A stretch of 32,000 nt of DNA from Cylindrospermopsis raciborskii Cr2010 (lineage in GTDB: Bacteria > Cyanobacteriota > Cyanobacteriia > Cyanobacteriales > Nostocaceae). The DNA is taken from NCBI RefSeq assembly GCF_003367075.2, contig NZ_CP065936.1:3210001-3242000 (forward strand), read 5' to 3'. A model generated the notes under the pieces. That model searched no databases. It saw only the letters and a list, made by a program, of their open reading frames with translations, and had not been told where the DNA came from. The translations under genes were made by a program, and so were the position numbers. Shown piece by piece: positions 28,738-31,343 of this stretch (position 1 is its first letter; each line of letters opens with the position of its first letter).

Positions 28738-29997
28738 ATGAAAATATCACTGTCTTCCGAAAATGTGATCCAGTACCTTTATGACACAGGTCTGTTCAGT
28801 TCACAAGATTCTCCATCCCCTGAATCTGATTTACCTAAAACTACTATTGATAACCATATTTTCTTGGTAAAACTCTCTGGTAACCGCCAAATTCTAATTA
28901 AACAAGAAACCCCTAATGGGGAATATCCCAGTAACTACCAGTTCTCGAACGAGTGGGTTTTTCACCAATTACTAGTGCAATTTCCCCTTCTTGGTAATAT
29001 TCCGGCGATCGCATCTTTACTATTACACTTTGATGCGGAAAACTCTATCCTGGTCTGTACTTTTCTGAGCGAATATATGGAACTGGAGGAATTTTACAAA
29101 AATCGCAGTATTTTCCCCCTAGAAATTGCTACTTCTATTGGTAGTGCATTAGCATGTTTACATCGTTCCACTTTCCAGAAGCAGGAATACCGTGATTTTA
29201 TAGATACTGCACCCGAGGGAGAGTTACGCTACAATTATTACAATCCGGTTCAAGGAATAAGCTCCCTTACCCAGCAGGTGTGGGGCAAAACTCCCACAGC
29301 AGCACTGGAATTTCACGCGCTTTATCAACAGTATGAAGAACTAGAATCTGCCATTGCGGATTTATCATACCATTGGAAACCATGTTGTTTAACCCACAAT
29401 GATTTACAACTAGATAATATTCTAGTTCATTCCCGCTGGCAAAACTTAGATGACTGTCTAGTCAGATTTAAGCAATGGGGAGTATATGCTTGGGGGGATC
29501 CCGCTTTTGATTTAGGAACTCTACTCGCTAGTTATCTACAAATATGGCTTTCTAGTTTGGTGGTAGATTCCAGTTTAGACCTAGAAGAATCCCTGGATTT
29601 AGCCCTTGTTTCCCTGGATACGGTTCAACCCTCCCTAATTGCAATTATGCGAACCTATCTCCAGATCTTTCCCATGGTTTTAGAATACTTCCCACAGTTT
29701 ATTATCCGGGTAGTTCAATTTACAGGATTGGCACTTATCCATTATATTCAAAAATGCATCAACTACTATAAGTATTTTGACAAAACTCATTTATCTATGT
29801 TAGAGGTTGGCAAAAAACTATTAACCATGCCAGAAAACTCACTATTAAATATTTTTGGCACTTCACCCCAGGAAATTCTGCCATCTGTGATAGGAGTTAA
29901 GATAGGGGTTAAAACTTACAGCAAAAAAAATGGCCGGGAAACCGATCGCCAAATAGCACCAATCTACTACCCTAAAACTCGTTTACGCGGTTGTTGA
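28738..29997 (+). CDS. Aminoglycoside-phosphotransferase-fold (APH/eukaryotic-like) kinase with a ~130-aa C-terminal extension
   Basis: The catalytic loop is H-N-D-L-Q-L-D-N-ILV (aa 220-230, nt 29395-29427). The metal-binding segment is AWGDPAFDLG. The beta3 Lys context is QILIKQE. Confidence 0.7.
   Translation: MKISLSSENVIQYLYDTGLFSSQDSPSPESDLPKTTIDNHIFLVKLSGNRQILIKQETPNGEYPSNYQFSNEWVFHQLLVQFPLLGNIPAIASLLLHFDAENSILVCTFLSEYMELEEFYKNRSIFPLEIATSIGSALACLHRSTFQKQEYRDFIDTAPEGELRYNYYNPVQGISSLTQQVWGKTPTAALEFHALYQQYEELESAIADLSYHWKPCCLTHNDLQLDNILVHSRWQNLDDCLVRFKQWGVYAWGDPAFDLGTLLASYLQIWLSSLVVDSSLDLEESLDLALVSLDTVQPSLIAIMRTYLQIFPMVLEYFPQFIIRVVQFTGLALIHYIQKCINYYKYFDKTHLSMLEVGKKLLTMPENSLLNIFGTSPQEILPSVIGVKIGVKTYSKKNGRETDRQIAPIYYPKTRLRGC
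29005..29012. repeat. HIP1 palindrome GCGATCGC
   Basis: Exact octamer within the kinase gene (PAIAS). Confidence 0.95.
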
Positions 29998-30131
29998 TCC
30001 CATTAGTGATTATGTTAAGGATTGTTCATCCTATCCTATGGATGTTTGTTAAAACTTTATGTACTATTTGCTGTTAGAGCCTAAATTGCCAGTATATTTG
30101 AGTTATATTTCGGAGGTGCAAGTCTATTAAG

Positions 30132-31343
30132 ATGTTGAGTAGTTACCAAGTAAATAATTCCCCCATAAATAGCCATTTGCATGGTCTGCAGTTAAACAAT
30201 TCCCCCCTAAATAGTCAAATAAGCCAAATCAGTAGTTCTCAAAGTTCCCCAGTAAGTCGACTAGATAATTATCACCTGTCCGTTATTGAGTCCCTATTTG
30301 ATATTGCTAGAAATATTGAGATTTCAGCGGATTTCTCTATTCAACATCCCCAATATCAACCTTTTGCCATACCTAGTACGGTGGCACAAAGATTTAGACA
30401 CAATTCACCGGATTTGCAGCAAAAATATCTAAACCTATTGCTGCGCAATTTCCTCCATGGTATTTATTATAACGGGGCACTGCAACCCATTTTATCTACC
30501 AATAATCAGCAGTGTGGTCATTTACTAACCAACGGATTAGAACCAAATTATAAATTAGGTGTTGACCGAAATTTTTACCAACAGCTACATGAAAATAATC
30601 ACGGTATAGGTAACTATGATGCTGAATGGGAGGTATTAAGAACAGAACCAGATGGGACTATTGCCGTGATGAAAAATAATCTCACACTGTATGTAGAACC
30701 AGAATGTTATCTCAAGTCCAACCGATCTCCTAATCCTGGTGATTTAATAGGGATTTGGATGCCAAAGAACCGACTGCAAAATGGTTGTTACATAGCAGTT
30801 GGCAACTGTAATCAGCAACATCTATCTTATAACCATAATATAAATTATTATTCTAAAAAAATAGTAAAAATCTATTTTAACATTACCCCATCCGGAGCGA
30901 TCGCCCTGATGAACATTTTAACAAAACGACTAAACGATGCCAGCATTCCCTTTAGTTTTGAAGTATTATATAATCCTATTTCTTATAGAAGGTATGATAC
31001 AGCCACATTGCATTTTAACTGTCAAGACTATCCAGCTATCCGTAAAATTTTAGAACCAACTTACCTAGAGACCGAAATTTATTTTCAGCCCCAAATACCC
31101 CTATTTACCAAATACTTAGCCCCTGGATTGAGTTTAGCTGAAGAACCGAACCAAAAATTCTCTCCAGAAGAGAGTTTTGGTATGAACCGTTGTCAAATAA
31201 TTGCCAATGCTCTGTTAGAAGCTTGGCAAAAAGGTAAAAATGCCATAGAAGAGCGAATACAGATTATTCAGCAACATTTTGCATCTCAGCTAATTGATTT
31301 ACATTACCCTTACCTCAATCCCAGCTCTCAGGATGTTTATTGA
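30132..31343 (+). CDS. Putative HopA1-family-like protein (candidate phospho-Ser/Thr lyase partner of the adjacent kinase)
   Basis: 403 aa. GGAGG lies 15 nt upstream of the ATG. The assignment rests on my recollection that cyanobacterial ~400-aa proteins of this type, next to an APH-like phosphotransferase, are classed as the T3SS effector HopA1 family. I cannot verify this without an HMM search. The N-terminal 45 aa are S/N/Q-rich. Confidence 0.45.
30897..30904. repeat. HIP1 palindrome GCGATCGC
   Basis: Exact octamer within the HopA1-like gene (GAIAL). Confidence 0.95.

Follow-up and report, generated by a model that had tools for sequence, protein, structure and literature searches.

Can a kinase–lyase gene pair of the kind that dehydrates Ser and Thr in peptide natural products be taken for a working dehydratase when it stands among housekeeping genes? 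The chromosome of Cylindrospermopsis raciborskii Cr2010 poses this question in a 32,000-nucleotide (nt) stretch (contig NZ_CP065936.1, positions 3,210,001 to 3,242,000), here called the window, to whose full length all coordinates of its open reading frames (ORFs) refer. A 419-residue kinase of APH fold (28738–29997, + strand) is followed on the same strand by a 403-residue HopA1-like protein (30132–31343). The 134 base pairs (bp) between them (29998–30131) contain no ORF and, like the rest of the window, no Rfam match at gathering thresholds; a weak terminator-like hairpin lies at 30027–30044, 30 nt past the kinase stop codon. An initial annotation, made from the sequence alone, had drawn the two ORFs and their spacing exactly so, and had proposed that their products could together dehydrate Ser/Thr residues. 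We conclude with high confidence that the genes form a diverged LanK/LanY-type pair outside any cluster for peptides that are ribosomally synthesised and then post-translationally modified (RiPPs). The pair is a Nostocales-specific offshoot of cyanobacterial LanK/LanY proteins, confined to heterocyst-forming cyanobacteria, that has departed from RiPP biosynthesis and, judged by its residue patterns, is probably no longer a canonical Ser/Thr dehydratase. As to what it does instead, our tentative reading, with a probability of about 0.4, is that the two proteins may form a kinase/pseudo-lyase complex with the kinase's own C-terminal tail as ligand. The family, the pairing and a subgroup linked to men genes are already in the literature or its supplements. 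What is new is that the clade as a whole has lost the catalytic Lys, which its sister class keeps, that its kinases bear a precursor-like tail, and that the Mg site is degenerate in the Cylindrospermopsis/Raphidiopsis lineage.

Homology, fold and conserved pairing

The 403-residue protein matched the Pfam HopA1 model (PF17914) with 190.9 bits (cutoff 22.7) over residues 210–395, confirming the family to which it had been assigned. This lyase-like half (30759–31316, +) aligns to residues 187–310 of LxmY, and an identical NCBI entry is titled 'MULTISPECIES: T3SS effector HopA1 family protein [Cylindrospermopsis]'. The sole sequence match in the Protein Data Bank (PDB) was the 'Lyase' chain LxmY of entry 9DK1 (9dk1_B; phmmer E = 1.7e-4, profile E = 9.8e-6). 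A Foldseek search of the PDB with the AlphaFold2 (AF2) model of the protein (predicted local distance difference test score, pLDDT, 68.5) gave significant matches to LxmY chains only (9dk3_B, 9dk1_B and 9dk2_B; E = 3e-11 to 4e-10, next match 0.16), with a probability of 1.00 over 359–389 columns and template modelling (TM) scores of 0.36–0.46.

The kinase scored 29.6 bits against Pfam APH (cutoff 23.2) and 58.6 bits (E = 5e-16) against the NCBIfam model for LxmK (NF038156), far under the equivalog cutoff of 315. The match to the LxmK model is nearly end to end, with kinase residues 42–367 on model positions 31–340 of 347. Searches of PDB sequences with the kinase, as a single sequence or as a profile, did not detect LxmK; the NCBIfam model and the fold search alone did so. 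In the latter, the three top Foldseek matches were the LxmK chains 9dk1_A, 9dk2_A and 9dk3_A (E = 7e-4 to 2e-3, next match 0.46; TM 0.39–0.48), found with a poor AF2 model of mean pLDDT 52. The two proteins of the window thus have as their best PDB matches the two chains of a single complex. Entry 9DK1 is the LxmK/LxmY dehydratase heterodimer of the lexapeptide pathway, and neither LxmK nor LxmY is stable outside this heterodimer (PMC12141560).

An APH-fold kinase beside a HopA1-fold partner is likewise found in the lexapeptide (LxmK/LxmY, PDB 9DK1–9DK3) and cacaoidin (CaoK/CaoY) pathways. The same partnership occurs in the thioamitide systems TvaC/TvaD and TsaC/TsaD, where it is needed for Thr dehydration (PMC8153245). 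The homology to such two-component dehydratases that the initial annotation had invoked is supported by both sequence and fold; its naming of the lexapeptide lyase as LxmX was mistaken, since the lyase is LxmY, a LanY protein, and LxmX is a second APH-like protein (PMC9486802, PMC12291118). LanY proteins are understood on the template of the phosphothreonine lyases OspF, SpvC and HopAI1 and of the lyase domains of LanKC and LanL, in which a Lys base acts with a Tyr and basic residues hold the phosphate (PMC9486802). No sequence or fold match to any of these lyases or lyase domains was detected for the HopA1-like protein, LxmY alone being significant, and the equivalents of their Lys and Tyr are gone.

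One genome per GTDB species was scanned; relatives were encoded in 385 stretches, and the best 80 of these supply the locus counts given below. All 80 belong to Nostocales by record title, save two metagenome-assembled genomes labelled Chroococcales and two records with phylum-level labels. Conserved adjacency had been set beforehand as a test of the proposed pairing, and the pairing passes it: in 79 of 80 loci the gene directly upstream of HopA1, with the same orientation, is the kinase gene, and in the remaining one the HopA1 gene lies 165 nt from the contig end. The flanks are less constant. A DUF815/coiled-coil gene pair is present in 37 of 80 loci and a thioesterase gene downstream of HopA1 in 22 of 80, mostly directly adjacent. 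Since the pair is kept and its flanks are not, the two-gene unit is the constant part of the locus.

The nearest species genome is that of Raphidiopsis brookii D9 (L008), at 88% identity. Between it and the window, the ratio of nonsynonymous to synonymous substitution rates (dN/dS) is 0.29 for the kinase gene and 0.32 for the HopA1-like gene, compared with 0.06–0.17 for three neighbouring genes; the pair is still under selection, 2–5 times looser than its neighbours. In R. brookii D9 the HopA1 orthologue (L008:10001–11183) is split into two ORFs by an extra T (CCCTTTT for CCCTTT in the window), which may reflect a true frameshift or else a sequencing error in a homopolymer run of this assembly.

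Among 1.84 billion cluster representatives, a profile search returned 2,850 family members. A second search recovered a separate cyanobacterial class (P0419–P0538), which we call the K class; the group of the window is called the O class. A neighbour-joining tree places the O class in a single clade (30 of 30) beside its sister, the K class, which corresponds to the 'Family 1A' HopA1-phosphotransferase clusters described as RiPP-like by Eyles et al. (2021). K-class proteins are about 47–55% identical to those of the O class and share their gene order. They occur in Nostoc, Brasilonema, Moorea, Coleofasciculus, Chroococcidiopsis, Phormidium and others, often in the same genome as an O-class orthologue; Mastigocladopsis repens, for example, has both (P0109 and P0477). 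In all seven K-class loci examined, the kinase gene precedes the HopA1 gene, and the loci have the look of RiPP clusters. They contain genes for peptides with double-glycine (GG) leaders, usually several ('Family 1A'), and commonly an aldo-keto reductase, a peptidyl-prolyl isomerase (PPIase) and a C39-ABC exporter with HlyD; the exporter and/or an HlyD-type partner is present in five of the seven. The O class has none of these traits, nor the intact R-K-R-Y quartet of lyase residues, the tight gene spacing or the tailless kinases of the K class. Its gene-to-gene spacer has a median of about 125 nt, compared with 12–26 nt in five of seven K-class pairs; translation of the two genes in an O-class pair is perhaps not coupled.

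Several further features of the family were observed. Natural APH–HopA1 fusions of about 720–830 residues with low-complexity linkers exist (P0256, P0262, P0286, P0288, P0298 and others), usually with Glu in place of the first Arg of the lyase quartet. The HopA1-like protein of the window begins with a lineage-specific Ser/Asn/Gln-rich extension of 42 residues (30132–30257, +; pLDDT below 50), which among 20 aligned sequences is shared with its closest relative, P0001, alone; the other orthologues start at residue 43. This extension contains an internal duplication (NNSPINS/NNSPLNS) and resembles in composition the Ser/Pro-rich linkers of the fusions. Upstream of the kinase gene, at about 75–560 nt, 49–57 loci, mostly of Nostoc, share a conserved and partly repeated sequence that has no counterpart in the window and may be either regulatory or a repeat element. 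The same Nostoc-type region yielded spurious families of short ORFs (217 ORFs from 57 loci).

Active-site residues and the kinase tail

The lyase chemistry of the family has been dissected in CaoY, where the K219A variant supports phosphorylation without elimination, R187A nearly abolishes and R229Q impairs elimination, and Y236 is a conserved tyrosine (PMC9486802). The corresponding residues of LxmY (R189, K221, R231 and Y238) were assigned by spacing in the printed alignment, from which an offset of +2 was inferred. Searches with phmmer and with a profile (hmmsearch), as well as hmmalign, all placed this quartet on positions 246, 277, 287 and 294 of the HopA1-like protein, where the window encodes K246, E277, R287 and H294. 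Of the phosphate-holding CaoY R187 and R229, the second is kept as R287 and the first is matched by K246, a Lys that may serve in its place, whereas the catalytic Lys (CaoY K219, LxmY K221) is replaced by Glu277 (codon 30960–30962, +) and the Tyr by His.

The loss of the Lys extends across the O class. Among 93 O-class proteins, position 277 is Gln in 73, Glu in 14, His in 4, Tyr in one and Lys in one, so that 92 of 93 lack the Lys. Position 294 is similarly unconstrained (53 Tyr, 27 His, 4 Asn and others, with six residues besides Tyr and His). In contrast, position 246 is Arg in 85 and Lys in 7, and position 287 is Arg in all 93. In the sister K class (n = 120) the whole quartet is nearly fixed, with Arg in 118, Lys in 120, Arg in 120 and Tyr in 119. 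Across 150 representatives of the family, Lys occupies the column of position 277 in 103. Ten long representatives have their HopA1 domain at the N-terminus, and each of them also keeps the quartet; among these, four are verified HopA1–LanC fusions (P0351, P0361, P0370 and P0385), all with R-K-R-Y.

Other positions also separate the classes. At two positions where the K class has a fixed basic residue the O class has none (K76 to Gln, H187 to Tyr), and at position 214 it has gained one, most O-class proteins having Arg where most of the K class have Leu. The rest of the lyase-like domain is mostly strongly conserved in the O class, including R287, D289, K327, E337 and R353. Drift at the base and helper positions beside fixed phosphate-holding arginines would be expected if the protein continued to bind a phosphorylated ligand without elimination. 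As O-class proteins have lost Lys277 and the equivalent CaoY variant is lyase-dead, the proteins of the window probably do not eliminate.

The kinase, too, is altered in the lineage of the window. Among 120 orthologues, all from Nostocales and 55–93% identical, the catalytic loop HNDLQLDN (29395–29418, +) keeps H220, N221 and D222 in 120 and N227 in 118, and the GDPAFDLG motif (29494–29517, +) keeps D254 and D258 in 120. These two had been noted as clear catalytic motifs, and both are indeed intact. The third motif is not, as the Mg-binding LIDWE reads FKQWG (29467–29481, +; D246Q). In a profile alignment, FKQWG falls on the 'LIDWD' of 7s3l_A, a protein of the APH family. Position 246 of the kinase is Asp in 116 of the 120 orthologues and Asn in three, and Asp in three of three aligned K-class kinases; Gln is confined to the Cylindrospermopsis/Raphidiopsis lineage (window, P0121 and L008). 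With K55, E72, H220, D222, N227, D254 and D258 conserved, the LanK catalytic set is incomplete at Asp246, and phosphorylation by the kinase of the window may be weak or absent. The absence of this Asp sets the kinase apart from LxmK, as does its TxLRGC tail. Judged by these residues, both Cylindrospermopsis partners are the most degenerate of the whole O class. This makes the pair of the window a poor choice for biochemistry, for which an Anabaena or Nostoc orthologue would be better.

O-class kinases bear a C-terminal extension of about 35 residues and are about 10–30 residues longer than K-class kinases. Past the final helix of the kinase (TIFGxSxxEIL), a linker that is variable and rich in indels (about residues 375–399) leads into some 20 conserved residues (residues 400–419; 29935–29994, +). 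Here P400, E403, Q405, L406, Y410, Y411, K413 and R415 are at least 90% conserved, and T414, L416, R417, G418 and C419 are invariant. The terminal hexapeptide T414-R-L-R-G-C419 (29977–29994, +), directly followed by the stop codon, has the form T[RQH]LRGC in 120 of 120 orthologous proteins; 93 of these end in YYEKTRLRGC, and the window in YYPKTRLRGC. Read at the DNA level in 79 genome loci and the window, 78 of 80 kinase ends show LRGC followed by a stop codon, with six Leu, four Arg and three stop codons in use. Such abundant synonymous variation points to selection on the protein rather than on a DNA or RNA element. The four exceptions in the tail are Thr to Ile in an Azolla symbiont, Thr to Asn in a lichen cyanobiont, Cys to Phe and Arg to His. 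The tail is absent from all seven K-class kinases and from the natural kinase–HopA1 fusions.

In its layout, Thr(-5)...Gly(-1)-Cys(0)-COOH, this tail matches the end of class Va precursors at which the ring forms. In cacaoidin this end is TASWGC, with an aminovinyl-methyl-cysteine (AviMeCys) between dehydrobutyrine (Dhb) 18 and Cys23 (PMC8068269), and actinobacterial precursors in the supplement of Eyles et al. (2021) end in TYTIGC and TIRKVC (PMC8153245). It was correct that no conventional precursor accompanies the pair, and what had been overlooked is the precursor-like T-x-L-R-G-C end of the kinase itself. The tail also resembles another well-known C-terminus. Ubiquitin ends in RLRGG; a ubiquitin-like role was set aside, as the terminal residue here is Cys and not Gly and no E1-, E2- or JAMM-type gene lies nearby.

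Genomic surroundings and the search for a precursor

The genes on either side are those given by the initial annotation. Downstream, 29 bp past the HopA1 stop codon and on the same strand, lies a YbgC/4HBT thioesterase gene (31372–31821, +; Pfam 4HBT_2, 63.8 bits) whose product resembles 1,4-dihydroxy-2-naphthoyl-CoA (DHNA-CoA) thioesterases, with weak similarity to MenI. It is followed by the convergent 3' end of menE (o-succinylbenzoate-CoA ligase; 31822–32000, −), which leaves the window and whose translation corresponds to the C-terminus of the menE homologue of L008 (NF005662, 618 bits); in L008, menC, menA and menF come next. Upstream, a DUF815 AAA ATPase gene (27089–28507, −; Pfam DUF815, 315.7 bits) diverges from the kinase gene across a 230-bp spacer, beside a gene for a coiled-coil membrane protein (26098–27165). 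This coiled-coil/DUF815 unit (26098–28507) is the one retained upstream in 37 of the 80 loci, at variable distance. Both genes are neighbours of the kinase gene, and their products are at most possible partners of the kinase. The rest of the window is of housekeeping character, with cutA, PBP2, apcE-apcA-apcB, rodA, egtB/egtD-like genes, two mscS genes, an OpuAC-type transporter and chlM.

Pfam scans of the 20 other ORFs of the window revealed no LanC, no HFCD flavoprotein (LanD), no LanX, no YcaO/TfuA, no C39 peptidase and no RiPP precursor. A RiPP exporter or leader peptidase was not found in the window, whose sole ABC genes encode the OpuAC-type glycine-betaine importer. The locus is therefore not a classical RiPP cluster, as had been suggested. 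It differs from the lexapeptide and cacaoidin loci in lacking LanA, LanD, LanX, protease and exporter and in occupying a fixed site on cyanobacterial chromosomes among housekeeping genes, and from thioamitide clusters, which carry YcaO/TfuA, an HFCD decarboxylase and a precursor, in having none of these.

A defence role was also considered and rejected, as PADLOC matched neither product of the gene pair, nor the thioesterase. For the DUF815 ATPase it gave a single marginal P-loop match (mad8, E = 0.002), and for the coiled-coil protein low-scoring matches to long coiled-coil defence proteins, which we take as compositional. Three other places in the window deserve mention. At 13645–16055, an FGE-sulfatase/EgtB-like gene adjoins a Methyltransf_33 (EgtD-type histidine methyltransferase) gene, resembling an ergothioneine biosynthesis pair. 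A 451-residue ORF (21589–22944) directly after a DUF427 gene (21088–21585) has no Pfam match at E 0.001, and a 522-residue ORF (19232–20800, −) has a weak, sub-threshold radical-SAM match (24.9 bits, cutoff 29.5).

Nor did searches beyond the window reveal a separate precursor gene. Six Family 1A peptides from the supplement of Eyles et al. (2021), compared by tblastn with the window and with the 80 O-class loci (within 10 kb), gave no match (best E 0.4). When about 9,000 small ORFs from the flanks were clustered, the resulting families appeared to stem from the conservation of DNA between closely related Nostoc strains and contained no convincing peptide gene; their single member in the window is an antisense ORF inside the DUF815 gene.

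The group is described above as new in part only. Eyles et al. (2021) list the O-class proteins CEJ45286, WP_015211014, WP_016950293 and WP_017315790, from Cylindrospermum, Anabaena, Mastigocladopsis and Umezakia, in their supplement beside thioesterase, AMP-binding, enolase, chorismate-binding and prenyltransferase domains (PMC8153245). This co-occurrence signature, in supplementary dataset 1, corresponds to the men cluster. In supplementary dataset 2, the sole RiPPER 'precursor' for WP_016950293 and WP_017315790 is a TMEM14/DUF4064-like membrane protein of about 105 residues, about 2 kb away (PMC8153245), which we read as a false call. The O-class group is not discussed in the accessible part of the article's text (PMC8153245), and literature searches on HopA1 in cyanobacteria or heterocysts, or for the string TRLRGC, found nothing on it. 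Its description as uncharacterised needs qualifying by the supplementary co-occurrence table, where members appear with men-type domains.

Candidate functions of the pair

We propose that both proteins would still form a heterodimer like LxmK/LxmY. The HopA1-like subunit, having kept its phosphate-holding arginines (R287, and R or K at 246) and lost the general-base Lys (Glu277) together with the constraint on the helper Tyr (His294), would bind a phospho-Ser/Thr ligand instead of eliminating from it, acting as a pseudo-lyase. The kinase would meanwhile have gained a flexible linker and the conserved T-R-L-R-G-C tail, copying the Thr(-5)...Cys(0) end of a class V precursor. This tail would be the most likely ligand, in cis: Thr414 would be phosphorylated, in lineages with an intact kinase, and captured in the former lyase pocket, the outcome being a self-contained binding or switch module. 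That LxmK and LxmY are stable only together offers a reason to keep a non-catalytic partner.

Several observations weigh against this proposal. The catalytic residues were assigned by alignment to LxmY and by a CaoY offset taken from spacing, not by structural superposition, and about 30% of the family representatives have no Lys at the column in question, so that the active site is perhaps more plastic than the work on CaoY suggests. Arg214 or Tyr187, both gained in the O class, could serve as substitute base. The Thr or Cys of the tail is replaced in 3 of 80 loci with the genes intact, the tail has a pLDDT of about 29 in the poor AF2 model of the kinase, with no docking indicated, and a tail so invariant might just as well dock onto some unrelated protein.

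If a substitute base did operate, the pair could still be an active two-component dehydratase that works in trans with a non-canonical base, installing dehydroalanine (Dha) or Dhb on a protein or peptide encoded elsewhere. The clear LanK/LanY homology, the conserved pairing and the largely conserved lyase-like domain would fit such an enzyme, and substrates in trans exist in principle, Cylindrospermopsis having a K-class system with Family 1A peptides elsewhere in its genome (WP_009343975; supplement of Eyles et al., 2021; PMC8153245). We nevertheless consider it unlikely, and the proposal of a working Ser/Thr dehydratase is weakened by the same residues that support a pseudo-lyase: Glu replaces the catalytic Lys, non-Lys residues (Q, E, H or Y) fill the position in all but one of the orthologues while the sister class keeps Lys throughout, the Tyr position drifts as well, the CaoY variant without the Lys is lyase-dead, and the kinase of the window has lost its Mg-binding Asp. 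In addition, a candidate substrate gene is syntenic in none of the 80 loci. Activity confined to the tail is more doubtful still. Here Thr414 would be phosphorylated and eliminated to Dhb, to which Cys419 would add, giving a six-residue C-terminal methyllanthionine (AviMeCys-like with a decarboxylase encoded elsewhere), perhaps released by proteolysis. The tail has exactly the class Va layout and is confined to the class without a separate precursor; its flexible linker of 20–30 residues could reach the K/Y cavity, the same linker region joins the domains in the natural fusions, and ring closure can proceed without an enzyme once the dehydro residue is present (PMC12291118). Yet this route requires the lyase activity that the residue pattern disfavours, no LanD or LanX homologue is found among the window ORFs scanned, core peptides are usually variable where this tail is invariant, two symbiont genomes have Ile or Asn for the Thr in otherwise intact genes, and the AF2 kinase model gives no structural support. 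Borosin N-methyltransferases of the OphMA type are modifying enzymes with a core-peptide-like sequence at their own C-terminus. By analogy, and as a long shot, the kinase itself might be the missing precursor, with T414-R-L-R-G-C419, after phosphorylation and dehydration, cyclised by the Cys to a (methyl)lanthionine or AviMeCys-like ring of six residues: an enzyme-tethered lanthipeptide of borosin-like architecture, fixed in the core genome of all heterocyst-forming cyanobacteria and possibly releasing a small cyclic peptide of cationic character that would serve in signalling or as a cofactor. Borosin chemistry and fold differ, and modification of the tail here is hypothetical.

Two further explanations turn away from peptides altogether. 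The pair may act on a metabolite linked to phylloquinone, the kinase phosphorylating a small hydroxylated molecule that the HopA1-like protein then processes, as an accessory to the men genes. The thioesterase gene immediately downstream with menE, menC, menA and menF beyond it, the co-occurrence of O-class accessions with men-type domains in supplementary dataset 1 of Eyles et al. (2021), and the frequency of small-molecule substrates among APH-family enzymes are in its favour. It is very improbable all the same, as no more than 22 of 80 loci have the thioesterase gene, the linkage has disappeared from most Nostoc genomes with the pair remaining there, and the nearest relatives all act on peptides. 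To our knowledge an enzyme has been assigned to each step of phylloquinone synthesis in cyanobacteria, which also counts against such a role. Least probable of all, in our view, is a functionless remnant, a RiPP dehydratase decaying after the loss of its cluster. The catalytic residues lost in both Cylindrospermopsis-lineage proteins, the dN/dS above that of the neighbours and the 1-nt frameshift in the R. brookii D9 copy could be read in this way. Against it, both ORFs are intact across the examined species-level genomes from Stigonema to Dolichospermum, save that one copy, dN/dS is about 0.3 and not 1, and decay does not yield a tail that is new, near-invariant and selected as protein. Among these explanations, which together take up most but not all of the probability, we prefer the kinase/pseudo-lyase complex with its own tail as the putative ligand.

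HopA1/APH pairs now serve as the handle by which genomes are mined for class V lanthipeptides, and automatic pipelines will count this locus among them. A whole Nostocales clade carries this handle without a cluster and without the catalytic Lys, and should not be counted as encoding a RiPP synthase. If the tail were modified in cis, it would represent a new route to a lanthionine-type ring, made on the enzyme itself, in ecologically important, bloom-forming and nitrogen-fixing cyanobacteria. If instead the HopA1-like subunit traps the phospho-Thr tail of its kinase, it would be a pseudo-lyase that stems from a lanthipeptide enzyme, the first of its kind, and also a ready-made phosphopeptide-binding module.

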